Shown here in pieces: positions 1-43,798 of a stretch of DNA of 64,000 nt. A program made the position numbers and the translations under genes. The DNA comes from an uncultured Bacilli bacterium (GTDB lineage Bacteria > Bacillota_I > Bacilli_A > RF39 > UBA660), in the NCBI GenBank assembly GCA_944350445.1, contig CALVOW010000004.1:1154-65153 (forward strand). Direction: 5' to 3'. Under the pieces are notes generated by a model. That model saw only the letters and a list, made by a program, of their open reading frames with translations. It was not told the DNA's origin and did not search any database. The stretch's first letter is position 1. Every line of letters starts with the position of its first letter.

Positions 1-2614
1 TCGAACATAGAAAATAACTCTTCATCTGATACTTGATAATATTCTTTTAAATAATTAATTAATTCTTGCTGATATTTTTGAATAACTGCATCACTTTCTA
101 ATAAATCTTCATTATTTTTACCAACAGGGCAAAAAACAATATATTTGCCACCTTTTTTAATATTATTACCAATGATTTTAGCTATACCATCAGCTTCATT
201 TACTACTTTTCTTAATTTATCAAACTTCTCAATAAATTGTTGCTTTTTTTCTTCATCGTCAAGTGAATTTATTTTTTCAAGTAAATTATCAAGGAAACCA
301 TTTTTTTCTTTTAAAGTATATTCACACTGAACTACTTTGGGATTTACAACATAACCTAATTTAATTGCCTCTTCTAAATCCATATTCATAGATAGATGTT
401 CATGTCTTTGAATTTCTTCTTCTAAATAACCAAAATATCTTGCCCATTCAACTGCCATGTTTTTTCCATCCATATCTCGAAGTGGGGTTGCCGTTATACC
501 TAAAACTTTGGTTTCTTTGGTTTGATTTTTTAAAAGTTCTAATATATGCTTATTCCAATCAGTAGCACCTGATCTATGTAATTCATCAAAGATAATTAAA
601 TCATAAGTATGATCAATTATTTCTTTTTGATTAAAACTTAAAAGAGAAGAATAAGTTTTTAATTTTAAATTTGGAAATACTTCTTCAACTATTTGTCTTT
701 TTGTCTTTTTTAAAGTATTACCATGAATATATTCAACAATATTATTTTCTATTTGATTTAATATTTCATCATTTGGAGCTAAATATAAAATCTCTTTATC
801 TTGATATTTTAACATTTCGGCTAAGGCAACAAAACTTTTTCCAGCCCCAGTTGGTAAAACGGCGGTTGTAAATTGATGAGTTTTAAAAGATTTATCAATA
901 TTTTTAACAGCCGTTGCTTGATAACTTCTTAATTTTAATTTTTTAGTATCTTTAACTTTATAATAGCCAAGAAAATCTTCTAATTCTTCCACTGTAAAAG
1001 TTTCATTGATTGAAAAATTATTTAAATCATTTCCTTTAATAACAGTAGTTAATAATATATTAGAAATATCTTTTTCTTTAATACCTCTTATTTTTAAACT
1101 ATTATAAATATTAACAATATCATATTCTTTTAGTTTATTTATAATATCATTTCTTTGTTTAAAAGAAAACTTTACAATTTCTAATTTACTCCAATCAAAT
1201 ATATCAATAATAGCATTAGCATAATAAGTTTCTTTATCAAGGGAATAATATTCAATAGTTTTAAAATTAGTAAAATAATATTTCAAAGCTTCAAGTGGGT
1301 TATTAATAATATAAATTAAATCACGATGATTTAAACTATTTATAAAATTAAATAATTCTTGATTATTATTGGTAAAATCAAGACTAACTGTTTCACTTAC
1401 TTGGTGTTTATTCCTTGTCATTCTTGAAAAAATTTCTGGTTCGATTCCATAAGTATTTTTTAACATATAATCAAAAACTTGATTATATTTAGGATTATTA
1501 TTAGTAATCTTTCTTAAAGATGCTACTATATTAATAGTTCTAAGTTTTGATTTTGATAAATAAAATGATTTTTTATATAATTCAATTGCATCATAAAAAT
1601 TTATTGTTCCATTCGTTAATTCATACATCTTTTCAATTGTATAATCTAAATCGGTATCTAACTTATATGAATCATATTCGAATTTGTCTAATTTATTTAT
1701 ATTATTGTTTATGTAAATGAGTATTTCTTGTTTTAAATCATTTATAATTGATAATTCACGTGGTAATTGTTGTAGTAAAGAAAAAATATCTATAAATTCT
1801 TTTGGTATGCTAATAATATTTTCTTTTTGAATATCACCATAATGAATAAATTCAAGTGAGGAAAAAGCATTTCCTAAGGTTTGAATTAAAAATTTATTAG
1901 AAACATTTGGAATAATTTCTGTTTTTAATAAATCTAATTTAGCAATTATTTTGTTTTTTTCAAAATTTTGTTTATCATTTAAAGCTAGATAATCAAGAGA
2001 TGTTGTATATCTATTTTCAAATTCAATACCACCTTCAAAAAAATCATTATTAAAAGAATTATCAGCAAAAAAAGTTTTTATAGTTTTTATAGCATCATCA
2101 AGGCCTTTTTGCGTTTGTGAATTTTCAATTAAGGCAAGAAAATATTTAATAATCTCGGAAATTTCATTACTATTTAAAAGATATTCAATTCTTTTTTGAA
2201 TTTCTTTAAGCATATAAATTCCAGCATTAACAACATTAGTCTCATTTGATTTAAATTCTTGTTTAGAAATTTTAACAACAGCATATTTATCTCGATAATT
2301 GCCTCGACCATACATTATAGAAATATTTGCATTACTTGATAAAGAAATACAATTAGTATCTTTTCTATGATGCATTTTAACATGATCAAATATTTCTTCT
2401 AATGATAAAGAACTTTCTTTATTATACTTGGGATGTAATGAATAGCGTTCTCTATCCGTTCTTATCCTAATTATGTTATCATTGTTATCTAATGTTATTT
2501 TGTTTTCTATATCATAATTATCTTCCATATTTAAAGCTCGAAAAAAATAATAGTAATTATCATCTTCTATGATATTAAAACTTTCTAAATTAAATATTTC
2601 ATCTAGCATATTCA
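1..2614 (-). CDS. SF2 (DExH / ResIII-like) helicase; N-terminal part of the protein only, the gene runs off the left window edge
   Basis: Minus-strand frame is open from the ATG at 2614 (GAGG just upstream; alternative ATG at 2608) to position 1. It is absent from the ORF track because it has no stop in the window. My translation gives LRSYQ..VLPTGAGKSFVAL (motif I), LIIFDELHRSG (motif II) and GITATPLR (motif III) at about nt 900-480. About 560 aa of unrecognised sequence precede these motifs. Confidence 0.75.
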
Positions 2615-2717
2615 TAACCTCTTATTTTAATTATATTTTCTAATCTAATTTTAGCAAATTGAAAATTAAAAATCTAGATTATTCAAAAAAAAAACTATAC
2701 TATTTAAAATAATATAG

Positions 2718-9387: not shown

Positions 9388-9840
9388 ATGGAAATTGATT
9401 CTTATGAAATTAATAAGGATACTTGTGCTATTTTAAATTTAAATAATGAAGTTACCAAAGTAGTTGAAAACAATCAAGAATATTTAATACCGAAGACAAC
9501 TTTTGAAGTAATGGAAGATAGCTGTGCTTATTATGGAAGTAGTTATGAAGGAAGACTTAAAGGGACAAAAATGATTTTAGGTTGCAATTATAAATTACCT
9601 ATTATTGTTGAAGAAAGCAATGATTTAATCTTTTTTCCAACTAATGGAACATCAAGTGAAAAGTGCTCTTGGATTTCTTTAAAACATGTTTTAAAATATG
9701 AACCATATAAAGGCTATACAAAAGTAACTTTTACAGAAGGAAGAACAGTTGTTGTTAAAATGTCTTATAATTCGTTTGATATGCAAGTTTTAAGAGCAAC
9801 AAGATTGCAAAATTTAATTAAAAATCGCACTGCAAAATAA
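9388..9840 (+). CDS. comK: ComK-family competence transcription factor homologue
   Basis: 150 aa that aligns by eye block by block with B. subtilis ComK: SYEINKDTCAIL, DSCAYYGSSYEGRLKGT, YKLPIIVEESNDLIFFPT...KCSWISLKHV and VTFTEGRTVVVKMSYNSFDMQV. Confidence 0.8.
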   Translation: MEIDSYEINKDTCAILNLNNEVTKVVENNQEYLIPKTTFEVMEDSCAYYGSSYEGRLKGTKMILGCNYKLPIIVEESNDLIFFPTNGTSSEKCSWISLKHVLKYEPYKGYTKVTFTEGRTVVVKMSYNSFDMQVLRATRLQNLIKNRTAK

Positions 9841-11153: not shown

Positions 11154-13062
11154 TTATGATTCTTCTTCTATCCAAGTTTTAGAAGGATTAGAGGCTGTTC
11201 GTAAACGACCTGGTATGTATATTGGAACAACTGATGTTAAGGGGCTTCATCACTTAGTTTGGGAAATTGTTGATAACTCAATTGATGAGGCTTTAGCAGG
11301 TTATTGTCATAATATTGAAGTAATTATCAATAAAGATAATTCAATTACGGTTAAAGATGATGGTAGAGGAATACCAATTGACATTCATCCCAAAACTGGT
11401 ATATCAACAGTTGAAACGGTTTATACGGTTTTACATGCTGGTGGTAAATTTGGTGGTGGAGTATATAAAGTATCAGGTGGTCTTCATGGTGTTGGGGCTA
11501 GTGTTGTAAATGCTTTAAGTAAATGGGTTGAAGTTACCGTTTATAAAAATGGAAAAATAAATAAAGTTCGTTTTGAAGATGGTGGTCATATTAAAGAACA
11601 TCTTCATGAAGTAGGAGATTGTTCTTCTGATCGAACTGGAACAACTGTAACTTTTAAACCAGATCCAGATATTTTTGATACTGATATTTACGATTATGAA
11701 ACTTTAAAAACAAGAGTTAGGGAATTAGCTTTTTTAAATCGTGGTTTAGCAATTACAATTAGAGATGATAGAGATTTAGAAGATACTACTGGGGAAACTT
11801 TCATGTATGAAGGGGGAATTAGTGAATATGTCAGATTTATAAATCAAAATAAGACTCCACTTCATGAGGATATAATTCATTTAAGTGGAGAGAAAAATGG
11901 TGTCTTTTTTGAAGTTGCCATGCAATATAATACTTCTTATAATTCAAACATTTATTCGTTTGTTAATAACATTAATACTCATGATGGAGGAACGCATGAA
12001 GATGGAGTAAAAAGAGCTTTAACGAGAGTAATAAATAATTATTCAAGAAAGAATAATATTTTAAAAGAAAAGGATGAGAATTTAAAAGAAGATGATGTTC
12101 GAGAAGGACTTACGATGATTATTTCTTGTAAGCATCCAAACCCACAATTTGAAGGACAAACAAAAGGTCGCCTTGGAAATAGTGAAGTTAAAAATTTGGC
12201 TGATAGTGTTTTTGCTGAGGGTTTTGAAAGATTTTTAATGGAAAATCCAGATGAAGCAAGAACAATTATTAATAAAGCCATATTAGCAAGAAATGCAAGA
12301 ATGGCAGCGAAAAAGGCTCGGGAAGCAACTAGAAAAACCGATTTAACAACAACTAATTTCTTTGGAAAATTGTCAGATTGTAAAAGTAAAGATCCAAGTA
12401 TTTCGGAAATTTTTATTGTCGAGGGTGATAGTGCTGGTGGTTCTGCTAAAAAAGGAAGAGATTCCATGACCCAAGCAATTTTGCCACTTCGTGGAAAAAT
12501 TTTAAATGTTGAAAAAGCTCGTCTTGATAAGGCTCTTGGCAATGAAGAAATAAAAACGATTATAACAGCCCTTGGCACGGGAATAGGAGATTATTTTGAT
12601 TTATCCAAATTAAGATATGATAAAATTATTATCATGACTGATGCCGATGTTGATGGTTCGCATATTCGGGTTTTATTATTAACTTTGTTTTATCGCTTTT
12701 TCAAACCAATTGTGGAAGCTGGCCATGTTTATGCAGCTCAACCGCCACTTTTTAGAATCATGCATGGAAAAACGCGAAAATATGTTTTAAATGAAGAAGA
12801 ATTGGAAAGTTATTTAAAAAGTTTACCAGAAAATGTTCGTAATAAAGCGGAAATTGCCAGAATGAAAGGTCTTGGAGAAATGGATGATGATGAGTTAAAC
12901 GAAACAACTATGGATATTAATACGAGAGTTTTAAGAAAAATAACAGTTGATGATTGTGTGTCAGCTGATGCTATATTTGAAAAGCTTATGGGTGATGATG
13001 TTGATCCAAGAAGAAAGTTTATTGAAGAAAATGCTTGGAATGTCCAAAATTTAGATATTTAA
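11128..13062 (+). CDS. gyrB: DNA gyrase subunit B
   Basis: 644 aa with a GHKL ATPase N-terminus ([31 protein letters not shown]) and a Toprim domain ([27 protein letters not shown]). Confidence 0.97.
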
Positions 13063-27280: not shown

Positions 27281-27483
27281 AGCCGTAAAGCAATGAAGAA
27301 ATGAGTACATTTTTGTCTTATTAAAGAGATGTTTTGGTTGGTGGAAAAAACAATAAGAGGAAATGGAAGATGGTTTTGGAGCTTGGTAACACGCTTTCTC
27401 GCGTTAAAAGAAATGAGACATAGTAATATGTGAAATAAGGTGGTACCACGAAATCTTCGTCCTTTGGACTAAGATTTTTTTTT
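27281..27483 (+). promoter_or_regulatory. T-box riboswitch leader (probable Met specifier) with intrinsic terminator
   Basis: Stem I features are present: AATGAAGAAATGAGTA (GA/K-turn-like), an AGAGA bay and a distal GGTTGGTGGAAA. The T-box sequence AAGGTGGTACCACG lies at 27437-27450, and a terminator hairpin plus T9 at 27451-27483. GAA-ATG-G at 27360-27366 is the candidate specifier. Confidence 0.8.
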
Positions 27484-27554: not shown

Positions 27555-28331
27555 ATGAAAAATAAAACAATACATTTTATTAGTAATAAAAAAATTATAA
27601 TTATTACATTAATTTCTATTTTTCTTTTAATAACTGTTTTTTGCAGTTTTCAAACTATTAAAAGTGGCGAAGTTGGACTTCGGGTTCGTTTTGGAAAAAT
27701 TATTGATAGTAATTTATCCGAAGGATTTAATTTTAAAATTCCTTATATCGAAAAAATCGTAAAAGTAAATATTAAAGTTCAAAAAGTAGAACTAACAACA
27801 GCTGCAGCTAGCAAAGATTTACAAGATATTAATACTAATTTAGCTATTAATTATCGAGTTTTAAGTGAAGAGGCTAGTAATTTATATAAAACAGTTGGTA
27901 ATGCTTATGAAGAAATTATTTTAGTTCCTGTAATAGAAGAGAGTTTAAAAGCAATTATCTCTAATTATACAGCTGAGGAAACAATTACTAAACGAAGTGA
28001 AGTATCAAGTAAATGTTTAGAAGAATTACAAGATAAAGTAGAAAAATATGGAATTGTAATTGATAATTTTAATATTATTAATTTATCTTTTAGTGAAGAA
28101 TATTCAAAAGCTATTGAAGAAAAACAAGTTGCTGAACAAAAATTAGCAACTGCTAAACTAGAAGCTGAAGCTCTGATTGTTGAAGCTGAGGCAACGAAAG
28201 AGGCTAATGAACTTTTAAAGCAATCTCTAACAGATGAATTAATCGAAAAACAATTTATTGAAAAATGGGATGGAAAATTACCTGAAACATATGCTGGAGA
28301 CGACATTTTAGGAATTTTTAAAACCAAATAG
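27555..28331 (+). CDS. SPFH/band 7 (prohibitin-family) membrane protein
   Basis: 258 aa with an N-terminal TM, an SPFH core (GEVGLRVRFGKI...) and an Ala/Glu coiled coil (AEQKLATAKLEAEALIVEAEA). Confidence 0.85.
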   Translation: MKNKTIHFISNKKIIIITLISIFLLITVFCSFQTIKSGEVGLRVRFGKIIDSNLSEGFNFKIPYIEKIVKVNIKVQKVELTTAAASKDLQDINTNLAINYRVLSEEASNLYKTVGNAYEEIILVPVIEESLKAIISNYTAEETITKRSEVSSKCLEELQDKVEKYGIVIDNFNIINLSFSEEYSKAIEEKQVAEQKLATAKLEAEALIVEAEATKEANELLKQSLTDELIEKQFIEKWDGKLPETYAGDDILGIFKTK

Positions 28332-28342
28332 GAGGGAATATT

Positions 28343-29887
28343 ATGGAAAAAGAAAATAAAAAATATTATGTAACTACACCCATTTATTATCCATCAGCTA
28401 ATTTTCACATTGGGCATTGCTATACAACAGTAATAGCTGATAGTATTGCAAGATATAAAAAATTACTTGGTTATGATGTTTATTTTTTAACTGGTAGTGA
28501 TGAACATGGGTTGAAAATTCAAAAAAAAGCTTTGGAAAATGGGGTAACACCACAAGAATATGTTGATGAAATAATTTTAAATGCTAAAGATTTATGGAAA
28601 AGTTTAAATATTAATTATGATAAATTTATAAGAACAACTGATTCTTATCATATAGAAACTGTTCAAAAAATATTTAAAAAATTATATGATCAAGGAGATA
28701 TATATAAAGGTGAATATAAAGGTCTTTATTGTACACCTTGTGAGTCTTTTTGGACAGAAACGCAACTTATCGATGGAAAATGTCCTGATTGTGGACGAGA
28801 TGTTTCCGAGGTAAGTGAAGAAGCTTATTTCTTTAGATTAAGTAAATATCAAGATCGTTTAGTCGAATATATTAATTCACATCCTGATTTTATTCAACCA
28901 GTATCAAGAAAAAATGAAATGATGAATAATTTTATTAAACCAGGTCTTGAAGATTTATGCGTATCAAGAACCAGTTTTAGTTGGGGAATTCCTGTTACTT
29001 TTGATTCTAAACATGTTGTTTATGTTTGGATTGATGCCCTTTCTAATTATATTAGTGCTCTTGGTTATTTAAGCGAAGATGATAGTTTATTTAAAAAGTT
29101 TTGGCCAGCTGATTTACATATAGTTGGTAAAGAAATAGTTCGCTTTCATACAATTATTTGGCCTTGCTTATTAATGGCTTTAGATTTACCATTACCAAAG
29201 CAAATTTTTGGTCATGGTTGGTTAATTATTAATGGTGGGAAAATTTCTAAAAGTTTAGGAAATTATCGTGATCCTAGGGAATATGTAAAAGAATATGGTG
29301 CTGATGCTATTCGTTATTATTTACTTCGCGAAGTGCCTTTTGGATCTGATGGTGTATTTAGTGAAGAATTATTAATATCTCGTTATAATACGGATTTAGC
29401 TAATACGATTGGTAATCTTTTAAATCGAACTTTATCAATGTTAACGAAATATTTTAATGGGGTTATTGAAAAAACAGATGCAAACACAGACTTTGATGCT
29501 GATTTAATTGAATTAGTAACGTGTACTAATAAAAAAGCCAATGATTATATGGATAAATTAGAAATTCCTGAAGCTTTAGACTCTATCCTTTCCATTTTTA
29601 GAAGATGTAATAAATACATTGATGAAACTACACCTTGGATACTTGCCAAAGAAGGAAAAAATGCAGAATTAAAAAATGTTTTATATAATATTTTAGAATC
29701 AATTAGAATTGGAGCAATTTTGTTAAGTCCATTTTTGCCTGATACTTCCAAAGAAATATTACGACAAATAAATACGAAAGAGACTAATTATCAAACAACT
29801 AATACATTTGGCTTATTAGAGAATGGTATTTCTATTGCTGACTATAAACCAATTTTTATGAGGATTGTAAAAACTGATGAAAAGTAA
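28343..29887 (+). CDS. metG: Methionine--tRNA ligase (short form, no C-terminal tRNA-binding domain)
   Basis: 514 aa with the HIGH-type motif NFHIGH, zinc knuckles CTPC...CPDC and the KMSKS-type motif KISKS. Confidence 0.95.
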   Translation: MEKENKKYYVTTPIYYPSANFHIGHCYTTVIADSIARYKKLLGYDVYFLTGSDEHGLKIQKKALENGVTPQEYVDEIILNAKDLWKSLNINYDKFIRTTDSYHIETVQKIFKKLYDQGDIYKGEYKGLYCTPCESFWTETQLIDGKCPDCGRDVSEVSEEAYFFRLSKYQDRLVEYINSHPDFIQPVSRKNEMMNNFIKPGLEDLCVSRTSFSWGIPVTFDSKHVVYVWIDALSNYISALGYLSEDDSLFKKFWPADLHIVGKEIVRFHTIIWPCLLMALDLPLPKQIFGHGWLIINGGKISKSLGNYRDPREYVKEYGADAIRYYLLREVPFGSDGVFSEELLISRYNTDLANTIGNLLNRTLSMLTKYFNGVIEKTDANTDFDADLIELVTCTNKKANDYMDKLEIPEALDSILSIFRRCNKYIDETTPWILAKEGKNAELKNVLYNILESIRIGAILLSPFLPDTSKEILRQINTKETNYQTTNTFGLLENGISIADYKPIFMRIVKTDEK

Positions 29888-31621: not shown

Positions 31622-32266
31622 ATGGAAAATAATTCTAAGCAAGCCGTTTTATCAATTGTTGGTATAGCAATTTTAGTAATAGCAGTAGTAGGAGTGTCAT
31701 TTGCGTTCTTTACTTATTCAAAAACAGGAACTACAAATAACGTAATTACTACTGGTAAAATTTCTTTTGCATACAACGAAGTAAACAATATAACATTAAC
31801 CAATCAATTTCCACAAACACCAGCTGAAGGAAAAACAAATGAAGCTTTCAAATTTAATGTAACTGGTACATTACCTGCTACTTCAAATGCAGTTAATTAC
31901 ACAGTAACAGCTGTTGCTGGTAATACAGAAGCTGATAAAACGAGAATGCAAGATAGTGACATTAATGTATATGTAACAGCTACTAATGGTGGTACAGTAT
32001 CAGGTCAATATGGTAGTGCAAATGGTGCTGTTGCTGGTAATAGTGCATCTGGATTCCAAATTGCATCTGGATCAATTCCTGCTGATGGATCACAACATCA
32101 ACATGACTTTACATTAACTATGTGGGTAAATGAATCTGTTACTATTTCTGATACTGATACTGGTGCTGATTATTGTGCTAGTGAAGAAGCATGTCAAGGC
32201 GATCGTACAGTTTATAGTGATTTATATTATTCACTAAAAGTAAATGTATCAGCAACTGACCAATAA
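31622..32266 (+). CDS. Secreted/anchored T/S/G/A-rich protein, TasA/camelysin-like (paralogue A)
   Basis: 214 aa with an AAGGAGGA RBS. The N-terminus KQAVLSIVGIAILVIAVVGVSFAFFTYSKTG resembles SipW-type signal peptides (G-T-x-A-x-F-T-D class). It is followed by ITTGKISF...ITLTNQFP, as in the mature TasA N-terminus. The functional call is tentative. Confidence 0.6.
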   Translation: MENNSKQAVLSIVGIAILVIAVVGVSFAFFTYSKTGTTNNVITTGKISFAYNEVNNITLTNQFPQTPAEGKTNEAFKFNVTGTLPATSNAVNYTVTAVAGNTEADKTRMQDSDINVYVTATNGGTVSGQYGSANGAVAGNSASGFQIASGSIPADGSQHQHDFTLTMWVNESVTISDTDTGADYCASEEACQGDRTVYSDLYYSLKVNVSATDQ

Positions 32267-32572: not shown

Positions 32573-33238
32573 ATGAATGGAAATTCATCAAAGCAAGTTT
32601 TACTATCGGTTTTAGGAATTGCTGTTTTAGTTGTAGCTGTTGTTGGGGTGTCATTTGCGTTCTTTACTTATTCGAAAGCGGGAACTAAAAATAATACTTT
32701 AACAACTGGTTCAATTTTCTTTAATTTTACTGAGGGACAAGCAATTACTTTAACTAACCAATTTCCAATAGATGATACAAAAGGCTCAACTTTAACAGCT
32801 GCTGAGGGAGACAATGCTGTATTAACTTTTAGTGTTGTTGGATACGATGGTTCAGGAACGGGAATTGATTATACTATAACTGCTAATCAAGGTAATTCAA
32901 TTGCTGAAAAAACAAGATTTAAAGATAGTGAAATTAAATTGTTATTAACTACAACAGCAAGCGGTGTAACTAATAATTTTTCATCTGCAAAAGCAGTAGG
33001 CACTGATGGTTCACTTGCTACTGGTGTAACTCTTGCGACTGGAAAAATTACAGCAACTGATAGTGATTCTCAACAAACTGATACTTATACATTAAGAATG
33101 TGGATTACAGAAGATGTTGTAAGTATAGATGACAATGATACACCTGCTGATGGTGATAGTGTTTATACATCAACAGAATTTGGTAATTTATATTATTCAT
33201 TAAGATTAAAAGTAGACGCTAATACATCTGGTGCTTAA
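32573..33238 (+). CDS. Secreted/anchored T/S/G/A-rich protein, TasA/camelysin-like (paralogue B)
   Basis: 221 aa with the same RBS context. The N-terminal ~60 aa closely resemble paralogue A (VGVSFAFFTYSK identical, with a 26-nt identical DNA stretch). Shared C-terminal blocks are LRMWITED / LTMWVNE and LYYSLRLKV / LYYSLKVNV. Confidence 0.6.
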   Translation: MNGNSSKQVLLSVLGIAVLVVAVVGVSFAFFTYSKAGTKNNTLTTGSIFFNFTEGQAITLTNQFPIDDTKGSTLTAAEGDNAVLTFSVVGYDGSGTGIDYTITANQGNSIAEKTRFKDSEIKLLLTTTASGVTNNFSSAKAVGTDGSLATGVTLATGKITATDSDSQQTDTYTLRMWITEDVVSIDDNDTPADGDSVYTSTEFGNLYYSLRLKVDANTSGA

Positions 33239-39768: not shown

Positions 39769-40221
39769 ATGAAATTCTTAAAAATTAATGCCAAGGTACT
39801 ATTGATTTTATGTTTATTTAGTGGAATTTTATTTTTAAGTACAGGTTGTGGAGATGATAGTTCCAATGATTCAAACCCAGGTAATGGAAGTGAAGTAGAT
39901 AATAATCAAGAAGATGATAATGGTGATAATCAAACAGATAATAATTCCGATGATGGTAATGATGAGGAAGGAAATACTGGTACAGATAACAATAACGGAA
40001 CATCTTATAATGACAATGTAGATTATTCTGTTTGGGTTGCTAATACAACTATTAATACTGATAAAGATCAAAGAAGCTATAAAGTTATTTGGGGAGATAC
40101 ATTGTGGTTAATTTCAACAGCATGGGATGTTTCTTACCAAGAAATTGCCACATTTAATAATATTCCAAACCCTGATTTAATTTATGTTGATCAAATAATT
40201 TATAATCCACTTTTTAAATAA
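39769..40221 (+). CDS. LysM-domain lipoprotein with a D/N/G-rich linker
   Basis: The ATG at 39769 follows an AGGAGG RBS; the ORF-track start at 39694 is unlikely. It has lipobox LFLSTGC, a low-complexity acidic linker and a C-terminal LysM (YKVIWGDTLWLISTAWDVSYQEIATFNNIPNPDLIYVDQII). Confidence 0.8.
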   Translation: MKFLKINAKVLLILCLFSGILFLSTGCGDDSSNDSNPGNGSEVDNNQEDDNGDNQTDNNSDDGNDEEGNTGTDNNNGTSYNDNVDYSVWVANTTINTDKDQRSYKVIWGDTLWLISTAWDVSYQEIATFNNIPNPDLIYVDQIIYNPLFK

Positions 40222-40240
40222 ATATCAATATATACCGATT

Positions 40241-40267
40241 AAGAATCAATTTTTGATTCTTTTTTTT
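40241..40267 (+). terminator. Rho-independent terminator after the LysM gene
   Basis: AAGAATCAA / TTGATTCTT 9-bp stem followed by a T-run. Confidence 0.7.
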
Positions 40268-40353
40268 GTAAAAAAACGTAAATATTTTTTGAAAAAATTT
40301 ATTTTTAACTAATTTTATGTTATGATGTTTTATAGAAAGGTATAGGTGATAAT

Positions 40354-40641
40354 ATGATAGGAGCAGATTATAATGAAATTCACTCTGCAGCTAAACAAAT
40401 ATCAAATGCTGCTAATGATTATAATTCTAATGTTCTTGAATTGTATAATATAGTAGATAATTTAGCAAGTGTTTGGAAAGGTGATGATAATGTAGCATTT
40501 ATTAATACAGTAAACAGTTATAAAAAAGATATATTGGCTCTTGGTTCAGTTGTTAATAATTATGCTATATTTTTAGAATCAGCAGCTGTTAATCTAGAAA
40601 ACACTCAAAGTGGAATTCGTGATGCAGCTGGAAGGTTATAA
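40354..40641 (+). CDS. WXG100-family (EsxA-like) protein
   Basis: 95 aa with no signal peptide and helix-turn-helix-like composition. A central W-x-G (LASVWKGDDNVAF) is positioned as in EsxA (ANWEGQAF). Confidence 0.8.
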   Translation: MIGADYNEIHSAAKQISNAANDYNSNVLELYNIVDNLASVWKGDDNVAFINTVNSYKKDILALGSVVNNYAIFLESAAVNLENTQSGIRDAAGRL

Positions 40642-40655
40642 GAAAGGAGATTTAT

Positions 40656-40967
40656 ATGGCTTTAAATATAAGACCAGAAGAATTAAGAAGTAATGCTTCT
40701 TCCATGAAAAATAAAATTGAAATAATGAGATCATCTTTGCAAACAGCAAGTAATGTAATATCAACAACTAGTACTTCATTTCAAGGAACTGGAGCTGATG
40801 CTATTAGAAATAAATATCATTCTTTAGAAGGTAAGTTTAATGATTTCTACAATGCAATGACTAATTATGCTACTTTTTTAGAAACTGTTGCTAATAGATA
40901 TGAAGAAGAAAATGCTAATATAGCTAAAAAAGCTGAAGAATTGTTGACATCTGACTATAATTCTTAA
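40656..40967 (+). CDS. WXG100-like small helical protein (degenerate F-x-G turn)
   Basis: 103 aa starting 14 nt after the previous gene. The central SFQGTGADAIRNKY takes the place of WxG, and it has EsxB-like size and composition. Confidence 0.6.
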   Translation: MALNIRPEELRSNASSMKNKIEIMRSSLQTASNVISTTSTSFQGTGADAIRNKYHSLEGKFNDFYNAMTNYATFLETVANRYEEENANIAKKAEELLTSDYNS

Positions 40968-40983
40968 TTGATATGGAGGATTT

Positions 40984-41826
40984 ATGAATGGATTTAATCC
41001 TATTGATGGGGGATATTCTGATATTGTTAGTGTAAATGATGATAGTTTAGGAAGTGTGGAATCTTCAAAATTTGTATTAAATATTGATTCTTCCATATAT
41101 GCTAATGAAGTTTATACAATAAACTATATAAATGGTTTATTTGCTTCTTTGCAAAAAATATGTGAAAATTGTCAATCAGTTGTTAACTCGGCTAAAAGTT
41201 ATTTAATTAGAAATAATGAAATTGCTGAAATATCTTTACCAGAAATAGTTGATTTTGACTTTTCAATTACGTCATCATCAACGGTTGCAACTGCAAACGA
41301 TTTAACTACCGAAGAATATCAAACAGGTGCTGTTAATATTAGAAGTGGAACTTTAAATATGCGATCAGCTCCCAATGGAACAATAATTGCAGGATTAACA
41401 AATGCTACCCCTTTAAAAATAATTGGTCAAGCAGGAAATAATTCTGAATGGTATAAAGTTCAAACCGAAGATGGTCAAGAAGGATATGTTCATTCTAATT
41501 ATGTTGCATTGTCATCTCCTACATCAACAACTACAACTCAAACGATTAATAGTAATTCGGGAGATATTTCAGTCGAAAGTGTTTCTTTGGCGTCTCCAAA
41601 ATCAACTACTCCGGAAGAAAGTATAAATTCTGTTGGAACTGTTGATATTACAAGTGGAACCTTAAATGTTCGAGCAACACCTAACGGAAATATTATATCT
41701 AGTTTAAATAAAGGTGACTCAGTAACTATACTTGGTACAAGTGATACTGATTCTGATTGGTTAAAAATCTTGACTAGTGATAACCAAGAAGCATATGTTT
41801 ATTCTAAATATATAGATAGGGGTTAA
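40984..41826 (+). CDS. Protein with two bacterial SH3 (SH3b/SH3_3) domains and no signal peptide
   Basis: 280 aa with two repeats: GAVNIRSGTLNMRSAPNG...EWYKVQTEDGQEGYVHSNYV and GTVDITSGTLNVRATPNG...DWLKILTSDNQEAYVYSKYI. The N-terminal ~100 aa are unrecognised and not hydrophobic. Confidence 0.75.
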   Translation: MNGFNPIDGGYSDIVSVNDDSLGSVESSKFVLNIDSSIYANEVYTINYINGLFASLQKICENCQSVVNSAKSYLIRNNEIAEISLPEIVDFDFSITSSSTVATANDLTTEEYQTGAVNIRSGTLNMRSAPNGTIIAGLTNATPLKIIGQAGNNSEWYKVQTEDGQEGYVHSNYVALSSPTSTTTTQTINSNSGDISVESVSLASPKSTTPEESINSVGTVDITSGTLNVRATPNGNIISSLNKGDSVTILGTSDTDSDWLKILTSDNQEAYVYSKYIDRG

Positions 41827-41828
41827 AT

Positions 41829-42203
41829 ATGAAAAAAAGAATTGATCCAGTTGCTATAAAAAGTGTTAGTGATTTTTTAATTTCACAAATTGATTTATTA
41901 AAAAATGCCAAAAATAAATTATTAACTGATATAGAAAAAATAAATACAGTATATAAAGGTATTGATGCTAGTGTAATTGTTGAAAAATACAAAGAAAGAC
42001 TTTCTAAAATCGATGTAATTATTTTAAATTATGAAAATTTTTCTAAATATATGCAAAATGTTTCAATGGCTTATTCAGATAATGTCAATGAATCTAAAAA
42101 TGAATTACAACAAGCAATTCAAACAAATTCTTCTTATTTAGGAAATACTGGTATATCAACTGAAGTTTTACAAAATATGCAAGCAAATACAATGAAAATA
42201 TAA
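41829..42203 (+). CDS. Small helical protein, WXG100/Lap-like (Y-x-G turn)
   Basis: 124 aa starting 2 nt after the previous stop. It has central NTVYKGIDASVIVEKY and no TM or signal peptide. Confidence 0.5.
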   Translation: MKKRIDPVAIKSVSDFLISQIDLLKNAKNKLLTDIEKINTVYKGIDASVIVEKYKERLSKIDVIILNYENFSKYMQNVSMAYSDNVNESKNELQQAIQTNSSYLGNTGISTEVLQNMQANTMKI

Positions 42204-42214
42204 AGGGATGGTAA

Positions 42215-42553
42215 ATGAATATGGCAAATGTTAACATAAATTTAAATACTTTATCCTTAGATAGTTTAATTCAGACACTTGAAAGTGATAATTTGGAACT
42301 AGATAATCTTATAAAAAGTACTAATAATGCTATAAGAAAATTAGATGATACTAGATGGAAATCTAGTGAAAAAGAAAAATTTATGAATCAAGTACTTCCT
42401 TTTTTAGATAAAATTGAAAATAATTTTTATTCTTCACTTAATGAATGTACGAATCTTTTGAAAGAAGCTAATATTAAATATCAAGAGACAAATACTAATA
42501 TTAAAAATACCGTCGATGAAGTAGATGGGTCTATTTCAATTGATATATTATAA
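42215..42553 (+). CDS. Small helical protein, WXG100/Lap-like (W-x-S turn)
   Basis: 112 aa with central DDTRWKSSEKEKF and no TM or signal peptide. It directly precedes the 383-aa gene. Confidence 0.5.
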   Translation: MNMANVNINLNTLSLDSLIQTLESDNLELDNLIKSTNNAIRKLDDTRWKSSEKEKFMNQVLPFLDKIENNFYSSLNECTNLLKEANIKYQETNTNIKNTVDEVDGSISIDIL

Positions 42554-42562
42554 GGAGGAAAT

Positions 42563-43714
42563 ATGAATTATGAAAGTTTTTTAACTGAATATAAAACATT
42601 TTATGATACATATCATGAAAAGATACAATTAGCATGTGATTGTATCAATAGTAATCCTTGTAGCATTTTAGATAATGAAATAACGAATATAAAAAATGTA
42701 ATTTTAAAACCTTTATATTCATTAGATTGGGATGATTCTGTTAAAGATGTTTTTGTTTCTAATTTAGATAATTGTAGTGCTGATTTGGATTTATTATCTG
42801 AAAGTATTCAAACATCTTTTAGACCTTCAGAGGGACTTTATCGTCAAATAAATAATGATTTAGAAAAATTAAATACCAATATACTTAATTTAGAAAGGGC
42901 TATAAAGGCTGAACCAATAAAAAGTAATTATAAAGAAGAAGTTCAAGATGCAAATGGAGCAGTTACATCAGTTACTTATCCTGGTTATCAAACGGCATAT
43001 AATGATTGGCAAGCAGAATGTTCAAATTACAATTCTCTTTGTTTGCAATTAAAGGAATCAATTACTAATAAATTAAAAAGTTTAGAACTTATAGATGGAG
43101 AAGCAGTAAATATATCTGGTCAAATGAATTATTCATTAACAGGACTTGCAAATAGTTCTTCTAATTTTACAACTTATAATTTTCGAGGTAGTGATTATTT
43201 AATTTTAGATATACCAGGTGGTTATGATAGTGTATTTAATGAACTTGGTTCTCAAGCTCCTAATAAATGTTATCATTGGGCCATAGATTATGCTACAAAT
43301 ATTATTGAAAAAACAGGAGCTACTGTATCAACAACGTCTGAATTTAGTACTTCTGATCCAAATGAAGTATTGCAAATAGCTGCTAGTGAATTGCTCCAAG
43401 GAAGACCAGTTTATGTTCAAGTAACTGGAACCCATGTAAGTGGTGATACATATACAAGACATTTTGTAACAATAGCTGGTATAAAAGAAGATGCAGATTT
43501 AAATAATTTACAGCAAAGTGATTTTTTAATTATGGAACCAACTGCGGCAATGCTTAAAGAAATGGATACAAATATGGCAAATTATCGGACTAGAAGTTTA
43601 TTTAGTGCTCAAAATGCAACATATCGTGCAGTTTCTAGTAACCAATACTTAGTTGGTGTATTTACAACTCCAGATGAATATTTATCAGAAACTTGTCATA
43701 CTACAAGTATTTAA
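42563..43714 (+). CDS. Two-part protein: N-terminal helical (WXG/LXG-like) region plus C-terminal papain-fold Cys-His hydrolase-like domain
   Basis: 383 aa with no signal peptide. The N-terminal ~190 aa are helical with SLDWDDSVKD. The C-terminal ~170 aa carry candidate catalytic Cys (APNKCYHWAIDYA), His ~64 aa later (YTRHFVTIAGI) and an acidic residue (DFLIMEP), spaced as in CHAP/NlpC-P60/C39-like folds. Confidence 0.55.
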   Translation: MNYESFLTEYKTFYDTYHEKIQLACDCINSNPCSILDNEITNIKNVILKPLYSLDWDDSVKDVFVSNLDNCSADLDLLSESIQTSFRPSEGLYRQINNDLEKLNTNILNLERAIKAEPIKSNYKEEVQDANGAVTSVTYPGYQTAYNDWQAECSNYNSLCLQLKESITNKLKSLELIDGEAVNISGQMNYSLTGLANSSSNFTTYNFRGSDYLILDIPGGYDSVFNELGSQAPNKCYHWAIDYATNIIEKTGATVSTTSEFSTSDPNEVLQIAASELLQGRPVYVQVTGTHVSGDTYTRHFVTIAGIKEDADLNNLQQSDFLIMEPTAAMLKEMDTNMANYRTRSLFSAQNATYRAVSSNQYLVGVFTTPDEYLSETCHTTSI

Positions 43715-43736
43715 ATATCTTTTTAGATATTTTTTT
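43713..43736 (+). terminator. Rho-independent terminator closing the WXG100-like operon
   Basis: AAATATCT / AGATATTT stem with a TTTT loop, followed by a T-run. Confidence 0.7.
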
Positions 43737-43798
43737 AATTTATGATATAATTTTGTTTAAAGTTTTATTTTCTAATATTTAAATGAAAGAATTTTTAG

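Follow-up and report, generated by a model that had tools for sequence, protein, structure and literature searches.

In a 64,000-nt stretch of DNA from an uncultured, low-GC gut Bacilli bacterium (GenBank assembly GCA_944350445.1, contig CALVOW010000004.1, positions 1,154 to 65,153; below, the window), six consecutive genes, which we call P1 to P6, occupy positions 40354-43714. We read this cassette as a chromosomal, vertically inherited operon for substrates of a type VII secretion system (T7SS) of the WXG100/EssC type, in which the ATPase would be encoded elsewhere in the genome and the cargo would be cell-wall-active enzymes, not cytoplasmic toxins, and we hold this reading to be probable.

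Results

The WXG100 pair and the other small proteins

The six open reading frames (ORFs) lie on the + strand where a first-pass annotation of this DNA had placed them, and encode proteins of 95, 103, 280, 124, 112 and 383 aa, from P1 to P6. The gaps between them, given there as 2-16 nt, measure 14, 16, 2, 11 and 9 nt, a ribosome-binding site of the GGAG/GGTG type is found 5′ of each of the six, and the motifs singled out earlier in the small proteins (VWKGD, FQGTG, VYKGID and RWKSS) were all found in the translations. None of the 19-residue Kyte-Doolittle windows exceeds 1.6 in any of P1-P6, and the six proteins are therefore taken to have neither a signal peptide nor a transmembrane (TM) segment, as had been claimed; the neighbouring LysM and GT2 proteins do show such segments.

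Both P1 and P2 exceed the gathering cut-off of the Pfam WXG100 model (PF06013, 27.3 bits), and their matches span positions 2-83 of its 86 (Table 1). Among orthologues W41 and G43 of P1 are invariant, as is F42 of P2, while G44 of P2 is replaced by serine in P0097 and its C-terminus ELL(T/S)SDYN is conserved. P2 also lies above the Pfam cut-offs for LXG (29.7 bits) and EspC (24.4 bits), being the only protein of the cassette that matches the LXG model in Pfam, and it matches ESAT6_2 of NCBIfam at E = 5e-14; a word-indexed homologue search with P2 returned 5 clusters. With hhalign, for which the profiles of the small proteins were built from 5-6 orthologues per family, P1 and P2 align to each other at 92.6%. 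The top sequence matches in PDB are EsxA/EsxB-type chains for P1 (4lws, 3zbh) and EsxA-like chains for P2 (12fa, 3gvm, 2vs0). By these profile matches P1 and P2 are true WXG100 family members. They have in common with EsxA/EsxB-type proteins (PF06013; S. aureus EsxA, 2VS0; S. agalactiae SAG1039, 3GVM) a length of about 100 aa, a full-length Pfam match, a central W/F-x-G and the pairing of adjacent genes, but differ from them in that the genes are not beside EssC or other core genes, the identity to characterised EsxA is low (PDB E-values 0.01-0.3), and export of P1 and P2 is only predicted.

For P4 no Pfam match was found. Its profile aligns with that of the P2 family over 89 columns (hhalign, 89.5% probability, E = 2e-6) with Y-K-G placed on F-Q-G, and on this alignment P4 is a divergent WXG100 relative, the Y42-K-G44 motif being limited to close orthologues. 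The P5 protein of the window reaches 15.8 bits (E = 0.017) against Pfam WXG100, which is under the cut-off, and four of six orthologues give similar sub-threshold matches (E = 0.008-0.027); the orthologue from locus L024, and that one only, has a sub-threshold match to DUF5344 (E = 0.014). The W-x-S motif of P5 is present in 7 of the 7 orthologues examined. Profile-profile comparison gave no significant link of P5 to P1, P2 or P4. The earlier description of the four small proteins as one canonical WXG100 protein with degenerate relatives thus stands for P1 and P2 by Pfam and for P4 by its profile, but for P5 there are sub-threshold matches only. It had also been proposed to compare them with WXG100, DUF3130 and DUF3958; P1 and P2 match the first, but no model of the Lap proteins, the small partners of LXG toxins, was reached by any of the four. 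No match above threshold was found to DUF3130/PF11328, DUF3958, DUF5344/PF17279 or DUF5082/PF16888, the sub-threshold matches being P1 with DUF3130 (E = 0.17) and P2 with a YwqH-like model (E = 0.0048), and none for P4.

P6 as a modular protein

Full-length P6 of the window matches no Pfam family, LXG and Peptidase_C39_2 both being absent at E <= 1. A structure model by AlphaFold2 (AF2), built from a domain-trimmed alignment of 54 sequences, has a mean pLDDT of 92.6 and replaces one from a 3-sequence alignment that gave a pLDDT of 42. The N-domain is modelled as an elongated bundle of helices (residues 3-30, 33-53, 59-115 and 142-179) with a hydrophilic beta-hairpin at 125-138, and the C-domain as a compact alpha/beta fold with pLDDT >90. 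Homologues of P6 fell into 3 clusters in a word-indexed search, and an exhaustive HMMER search gave 272 representatives (E <= 1e-3; 50% identity), some of them full-length, at least 63 with the N-domain only (residues 1 to ~190) and at least 58 with the C-domain only.

In the N-domain W56 is conserved in 81 of 81 sequences and D58 in 78 of 81, as part of the motif W-x-D-(S/N), and by its sequence this domain constitutes an unannotated family. Two resemblances were set aside. Foldseek matches to BAR domains were dismissed as generic long-helix similarity, and a profile match to the pore-forming toxins MakA/Nhe (E ~0.008) was rejected on account of the hydrophilic hairpin of P6 and of long-helix bias.

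The predicted catalytic residues of the C-domain are conserved in 72 of 73 (C236), 73 of 73 (H300) and 71 of 73 (D320) sequences. Peptidase_C39_2 (PF13529) matches 30 of the 62 members of the C-domain family (E <= 1e-3, best 2.9e-8), and the relative P0093 matches it at E = 0.014. The best Foldseek matches are IdeS/Mac-1, IdeC, staphopain, bleomycin hydrolase and phytochelatin synthase, all of them weak (probabilities up to 0.96, E 0.02-0.16). The first-pass guess that a helical N-terminus is joined in P6 to a papain-fold, hydrolase-like C-terminus is supported, because the model has both parts, the Cys-His-Asp set is conserved, about half of the family matches C39_2 and the best structural matches are papain-fold peptidases. 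On the model, then, we assign the C-domain to the papain-fold peptidases, as a C39_2-type enzyme with a Cys-His-Asp set. It is like Peptidase_C39_2, IdeS/Mac-1 and staphopain in its Cys-His-Asp set, its modelled papain-like alpha/beta fold and its extracellular action, and it differs in that P6 of the window is itself not significant against PF13529, only its relatives are, and that the Foldseek E-values are weak (0.02-0.07).

Within the species of the window a second allele of P6, of 455 aa, is found at loci L008, L009 and L018. The 383-aa and 455-aa alleles have only residues 1 to ~200 in common, and their alignment fails at the linker. By this comparison P6 is modular: its helical N-domain is conserved, its C-domain can be swapped, and a disordered linker joins the two.

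Table 1. Positions in the window of the cassette features and of its upstream neighbours
Feature	Coordinates	Strand	Evidence or remark
Membrane GT2 glycosyltransferase, 499 aa	38174..39673	+	Pfam Glyco_tranf_2_3, E = 8.5e-20; TM segments
LysM lipoprotein-like gene, 150 aa	39769..40221	+	Pfam LysM, E = 4e-10
AT-rich hairpin AAGAATCAA-ttt-TTGATTCTT then T8	40241..40268	+	Possible terminator of the LysM gene
P1, WXG100 protein, 95 aa, W41-K-G43	40354..40641	+	Pfam WXG100, 30.7 bits
P2, WXG100 protein, 103 aa, F42-Q-G44	40656..40967	+	Pfam WXG100, 38.5 bits
P3 N-terminal module, ~100 aa	40984..41283	+	Alignment of orthologues; fold unassigned
P3, two SH3b (SH3_3) repeats, ~aa 115-175 and 218-278	41326..41817	+	Pfam SH3_3, E = 1.1e-26
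P4, divergent WXG100-like helical protein, 124 aa, Y42-K-G44	41829..42203	+	Profile alignment with P2 family
P5, small helical protein, 112 aa, W48-x-S50	42215..42553	+	Weak WXG100 matches
P6 N-domain, aa 1-184	42563..43114	+	AF2 helical bundle; proposed secretion-targeting domain
P6 disordered linker, aa 185-199	43115..43159	+	pLDDT <50; junction of C-terminal domain swap
P6 C-domain, aa 200-383	43160..43714	+	Papain-fold cysteine peptidase, Peptidase_C39_2 type (predicted)
P6 Cys236	43268-43270	+	Predicted catalytic residue
P6 His300	43460-43462	+	Predicted catalytic residue
P6 Asp320	43520-43522	+	Predicted catalytic residue
AT-rich hairpin AAATATCT-tttt-AGATATTT then T7	43713..43738	+	Possible operon terminator

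Cargo domains and their site of action

The C-termini of 56 N-domain-only proteins were classified by Pfam, which found Phage_lysozyme2 in 8, Hydrolase_2 (SleB-like), Peptidase_C39_2 and the ATLF metalloprotease in 2 each, and Amidase_3 and NlpC/P60 in 1 each; NCBIfam adds a CwlD-type amidase, SleB and RipC. No nuclease, deaminase or ADP-ribosyltransferase cargo was found by Pfam in the 56. The identifiable cargoes of the N-domain are thus, by family assignment, mostly cell-wall hydrolases.

At locus L026 the gene directly after the effector gene (11479-12477) encodes a 332-aa protein with an N-terminal membrane anchor, of which the C-terminal 190 residues are 40% identical to the C-domain of P6 (E = 3e-43). 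The effector of the same locus carries the C-domain of the other allele, being 51% identical to the 455-aa protein. Elsewhere the C39_2-like domain is joined to Big_2, SLH, dockerin and Ig-like modules. Since the domain is Sec-type anchored in L026 and combined with surface-protein modules elsewhere, it acts outside the cytoplasm. The catalytic module thus works outside whether it arrives by a Sec-type anchor or behind the helical N-domain, which suggests that the N-domain is an export-targeting device and is the strongest internal argument for this. We also observed that the 332-aa gene resembles an orphan cassette available for C-terminal displacement.

Comparative loci and age of the cassette

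P4-like and P5-like genes precede the effector gene in the window and in L018, L023, L024, L025, L026 and L028 (Table 2). The P4 gene lies two upstream of the effector gene across the loci compared and the P5 gene directly before it, except that in L028 two genes are inserted after the P5-like gene. The gene order is kept in at least six lineages, down to a relatedness of about E = 1e-8.

As had been described before, P3 contains two SH3b domains, the match to SH3_3 (PF08239) scoring 93.2 bits over two stretches with a cut-off of 27, and these repeats are connected via a Ser/Thr-rich linker. They number 3 in the orthologue of L018 and 0 in L025 and L028. Ahead of the repeats stands the N-module, for which no Pfam or PDB match was found and a word-indexed homologue search gave fragments only. 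This module is common to the 206-aa protein of L025 and the 232-aa protein of L028 (hhalign 66%, E = 5.5e-5), and in every lineage its coding sequence immediately precedes the genes for P4-P5-P6, whether SH3b repeats are present or not. A kinship of the N-termini of P3 and P6 was considered and rejected, the two being unrelated on direct comparison. The P1-P2 pair is found in most lineages, L028 being without it. Because P3N-P4-P5-P6N is present in every lineage compared, we take this to be the conserved unit, and the WXG100 pair and the SH3b repeats to be common additions. An arrangement of the six genes as two equal triads, each of two small proteins and a cargo, does not survive the comparison, and nothing ties P3 to P1-P2 as their cargo.

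Table 2. Gene order at related loci (numbers are protein lengths in aa unless marked as percentages)
Locus	Genes
L018	WXG, WXG, 3x SH3b protein (353), 128, 110, 455
L023	128, 108, 387, dusB
L024	WXG, WXG, SH3b protein (311), 122, 112, 472
L025	206 (P3 N-module without SH3b), 108, 97, 538, clpP
L026	ftsH, GT2, LysM, WXG, WXG, SH3b (267), 128, 107, 448, 332-aa gene, dusB
L028	232 (P3N-like, 66%), 104 (P4, 96.6%), 101 (P5, 94.6%), two inserted genes, 580; no WXG pair

L028 (9114-11743) is the most distant relative. Its 580-aa effector has the N-domain of P6 (99.8%) and a C-terminus of metalloprotease type with the HExxH motif HEFGH. Of the two genes inserted before it, one encodes a 203-aa protein that has a signal peptide and the other a DUF1292 protein; either product could be an inhibitor or immunity factor.

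The first-pass annotation took the cassette for an insertion between ftsH and dusB. The G+C content of the cassette is that of its surroundings, and it precedes dusB also in relatives in which P6 is only ~30-41% identical; it is for these reasons an old resident and not a recent insertion. A phage or plasmid origin was rejected, as tblastn found no match in 50,697 phage and 72,556 plasmid records. A scan of a genome collection returned a single 4-kb contig from a metagenome-assembled genome (MAG) labelled 'uncultured Bacilli bacterium', and a metagenome scan with the P1 family returned the same species only. By composition and synteny the cassette is an old, syntenic and vertically inherited chromosomal locus.

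In a sister lineage (L019-L022, e.g. L019 8797-13139) an ADP-ribosyl exotoxin gene (PF03496) is followed by a WXG100 pair 50% identical to P1/P2, then by an 802-aa acidic coiled-coil protein and a 94-aa gene, with no EssC within 10 kb. The 802-aa protein of L019 was tried as a counterpart of P3 and rejected, having no similarity to it. One strain (L021 1-4481) has an extra module close by, which comprises a DUF4176 gene and codes for a 1038-aa protein.

Flanking genes and possible terminators

Upstream of the cassette lie ftsH, the membrane GT2 glycosyltransferase gene and the LysM lipoprotein-like gene, and downstream lies dusB. The GT2 gene is a conserved neighbour by position, being found at the same place in L026. 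The LysM gene adjoins the cassette in the window, L011 and L026, which are the closer lineages, though genes further upstream vary. Its start at 39769 follows metagenome gene calls, the longest ORF running from 39694, and in the protein a hydrophobic N-terminal signal peptide carries the lipobox LSTGC while the LysM domain lies at the C-terminus. In L011 (390-4821) a GT2-GtrA-YfhO set takes the place of GT2 while the LysM gene and the cassette are unchanged; GT2-GtrA-YfhO is a three-component wall-polymer glycosylation system.

Terminators had been assigned at 40241 and 43713. AT-rich hairpins with T-runs do exist at both positions, but they are weak: a consensus terminator scan misses both, and their predicted folds are not more stable than those of shuffled sequence (z = -0.56 and -0.86). 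No Rfam element was found near the cassette.

Secretion genes in the window and in other neighbourhoods

It had been stated earlier that the 64 kb contain no T7SS core gene, and the precomputed Pfam annotation of the whole window agrees, none of the T7SSb core set (EssC, EssB, EsaA, EssA and EsaB/YukD with EsxA) being present. The window otherwise holds housekeeping and sporulation genes (dnaA to gyrA, mfd, spoVT, spoVG, yabP, divIC, tilS and ftsH; also prfB, uvrA, lgt, whiA, clpP, ftsEX and a ClpB-type ATPase). The yuk locus of B. subtilis comprises core genes only, with up to seven LXG toxin loci elsewhere in the genome (PMC10765036), and because these toxins lie far from yuk, a missing EssC within 64 kb weighs little. 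An EssC/TsxC ATPase and a WXG100 protein are common to all ten T7SS subtypes described (a to j), and one or two small genes related to WXG100 usually flank a candidate substrate gene (PMC11217815). The recognised Lap arrangement is a pair of small helical genes immediately 5′ of the substrate gene (PMC11217815, PMC10801868), and DUF4176 is an established family of T7SSb toxin chaperones (PMC10801868, PMC12478183). The occurrence of a WXG100-pair locus beside a DUF4176 module in L021 may, by analogy, count for the T7SS reading.

Other features of the window

Apart from the cassette, the leftmost 2.7 kb or so of the window (1-2717), beside a jag/khpB-like gene, contain no ORF >66 aa. In metagenome contigs this gene-free gap is 3.4-3.9 kb long (L013 13222-16681, L014 13222-17129) in a genome that is otherwise tightly packed; its G+C is 19-26%, its GC skew is negative, and neither an Rfam match nor notable repeats were found in it. 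A ComK-family gene (PF06338) lies at 9388-9840, between dnaN and recF in the origin-proximal dnaA to gyrA cluster. A T-box leader (116 bits) lies at 27284-27467, ahead of a Band_7/SPFH-family gene (27555-28331) and, after a gap of 11 nt, the tRNA-synthetase gene (28343-29887); the two genes appear to form a unit under control of the leader, with a first member that is unusual. Two paralogous proteins of 214 and 221 aa, encoded at 31622-32266 and 32573-33238, have a common N-terminus (...VVGVSFAFFTYSK...) and no Pfam match; this N-terminus may resemble a SipW/TasA-type signal. A close homologue of the two is encoded at L024 377-1021, immediately upstream of the WXG100 cassette of that more distant locus.

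Discussion

Proposed mechanism

In the reading we prefer, a T7SS-type substrate operon, P4 and P5 would bind the N-domain of P6 and form with it a three-protein helical targeting complex, like that of Lap-Lap-LXG (PMC10801868). P1 and P2 would be an EsxA/EsxB-like dimer that is either exported along with the substrates or required for activation of the machine, while P3 may join the complex by its conserved N-module, its SH3b repeats holding the assembly on peptidoglycan. An EssC-type ATPase from elsewhere in the genome would power the export of the assembly. Once outside, the Cys236-His300-Asp320 peptidase would cut a wall-associated or extracellular peptide substrate, and in sister alleles or species the cargo would instead be a lysozyme, an amidase, an NlpC/P60 or SleB-like enzyme or a metalloprotease. 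The target may be the wall of the producer itself, in remodelling or autolysis, or that of neighbouring bacteria. We lean to a self-directed, housekeeping role insofar as there is no immunity gene and the chromosomal position is fixed, and to a role in conflict insofar as C-domains swap between alleles within one species.

Relation to known systems

The functionally closest system is that of the LXG toxins with their partners Lap1/Lap2 or Lap3/Lap4, as in TelA-LapA3-LapA4 and TelC-LapC1-LapC2 of Streptococcus intermedius (PMC10801868, PMC9600955). The Lap1-Lap2-LXG-like layout seen in the first-pass annotation is retained insofar as small helical partners precede signal-less proteins that would act outside the cytoplasm, but not as two equivalent triads. 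As in the LXG-Lap loci of T7SSb, two small helical genes lie directly 5′ of the gene of a signal-less protein, P6 combines a helical N-domain of ~190 aa with a swappable C-terminal enzyme domain, at least one small partner (P4) falls in the WXG100 superfamily, and the locus may be far from the secretion machine. The differences are that the N-domain of P6 is unmatched by the LXG models of Pfam and NCBIfam or by T7SS models and has W-x-D-S, not L-x-G, and a beta-hairpin; that the partners stay below threshold for all four of the DUF families named above; that the cargoes are wall hydrolases or peptidases and not nucleases, NADases or a lipid II phosphatase; that no immunity gene adjoins and the locus keeps its synteny instead of varying between strains; and that the unit is preceded by an additional conserved component, P3 with its N-module and SH3b repeats, and by a WXG100 pair. 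Judged as a candidate LXG protein from its sequence and gene context, P6 lacks the model match, the LxG motif and the adjacent immunity gene, and has the polymorphic architecture and the paired upstream helical genes.

EssH, a peptidoglycan hydrolase with a CHAP domain that belongs to the T7SSb locus of S. aureus (PMC13059805; Bobrovskyy 2018), is likewise a cysteine enzyme of the papain superfamily tied to a T7SS, and is thought to open the wall for machinery or substrates (PMC13059805). It differs from P6 in having a Sec signal peptide and in serving as an accessory factor that is not itself a substrate of the T7SS (PMC13059805); P6 is signal-less, carries a helical domain of the targeting type and has a C39_2-like C-domain where EssH has CHAP. 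The LDxD T7SS trafficking domain (Zhang et al. 2012, PMC3482391) is also a helical N-terminal domain of polymorphic proteins of Firmicutes distinct from WXG and LXG, and P6 of the window reads L54-D55-W56-D57, a comparison made by description only. The family of P6 conserves only W56 and D58, however, with L54, D55 and D57 <70% conserved, which makes a poor fit, and the cargo listed for LDxD proteins consists of nucleases and deaminases (PMC3482391).

Evidence against the T7SS reading

Several results weigh against a T7SS-type substrate operon. The L-x-G motif is absent from the N-domain of P6 across the family, and the 56 N-domain-only proteins match neither LXG in Pfam (E <= 1e-3) nor any LXG or T7SS model in NCBIfam (E <= 0.01). 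Foldseek searches of PDB and BFVD with the P6 model returned nothing at E < 1e-3 and recovered no LXG structure. Neither P5 nor the N-module of P3 could be linked significantly to a T7SS family. Behind P6 there is no immunity gene in the window, where the gap to dusB is 84 nt with no ORF inside, nor is there one behind the 455-aa allele, unlike in typical LXG toxins (PMC10765036). Pfam annotation shows no FtsK_SpoIIIE/EssC, YukD or EssB in the window, and EssC, YukD, EssB and EsaA were not found within +-10 kb in L019, L025, L026 and L028, of which L025 covers only ~1.5 kb upstream of the effector.

Alternative explanations

The same export could serve a different role, that of a classical antibacterial island of LXG-type polymorphic toxins with immunity provided elsewhere or by modification of the wall (GT2, GtrA-YfhO). 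C-terminal domains are indeed swapped within and between species, a related locus stands beside an ADP-ribosyl exotoxin gene and a DUF4176 module, the signal-peptide protein inserted just before the effector of L028 could be an immunity protein, and genes for wall glycosylation flank the locus. Against this, there is no gene between P6 and dusB in the window or in the loci of the 455-aa allele, and the gene after the effector in L026 encodes a TM-anchored copy of the peptidase domain, which is not of an immunity type. Because the neighbours are identical whichever allele is present, LysM and GT2 would not be allele-specific immunity factors. With Pfam finding none of the nuclease, deaminase or ADP-ribosyltransferase cargoes in the family, and with a locus that is syntenic and not island-like, we consider a toxin island unlikely.

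A second alternative is that the products are not secreted at all but form a sporulation-linked complex of wall hydrolases in the mother cell that reaches the peptidoglycan of the cortex or the mother-cell wall with no secretion system of its own, with the small helical proteins as chaperones or inhibitors. The model can be likened to B. subtilis CwlJ and CwlC, which are not known to carry signal peptides, and to LysM coat proteins. It would account for signal-less P1-P6 without an immunity gene at a fixed position near yabP, divIC and ftsH, and for the lack of a secretion ATPase in any neighbourhood sampled; BofA, SpoVT, SpoVG and YabP are encoded in the window or in syntenic loci, with YabQ in L026, and the cargoes of the family include the CwlD-type amidase and SleB-type Hydrolase_2. 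Yet P1 and P2 are, by their profiles, true members of WXG100, a family defined by T7SS export, swapping of C-domains within a species is typical of secreted conflict proteins, and in L026 the same catalytic domain is exported from the producing cell via a Sec-type anchor. Moreover, spoVG...ftsH is an ordinary conserved gene order in Firmicutes and no evidence of co-regulation, and no promoter of a sporulation sigma factor was recognised in the AT-rich DNA of the locus. We regard this alternative as decidedly unlikely.

Highly improbable, finally, is a lineage without EssC, in which the WXG100/Lap-like cassette is exported by an undescribed translocase or by helical self-export, or in which the hydrolases reach peptidoglycan without crossing a membrane. 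In its favour, no T7SS core gene occurs in the 64 kb or in four other neighbourhoods, across lineages with a rearranged cassette position, the targeting domain and partners belong to families unrecognised by T7SS models, and the clade is uncultured and very low in G+C. Against it, every T7SS variant described, from a to j, keeps EssC/TsxC and WXG100 (PMC11217815), it is normal for substrate genes to lie at a distance from the core locus, B. subtilis being an example (PMC10765036), the operon encodes no membrane protein, and the ~100 kb sampled are little of a much larger genome.

Implications

If the reading as a T7SS-type substrate operon is true, T7-like secretion uses a further family of targeting domains with partners of its own, recognised by no current model, and this family would be devoted to peptidoglycan hydrolases and peptidases rather than to toxins that act in the cytoplasm. 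It would bear on how the substrates and machinery of T7SSb cross the thick Gram-positive wall, and part of the T7SS cargo may then consist of autolysins or bacteriolysins that have housekeeping tasks and work with no immunity gene next to them. Should the clade lack EssC, the operon would point instead to a new export route for WXG100-type proteins. For the annotation of gut MAGs it gives a handle on a set of hypothetical proteins.

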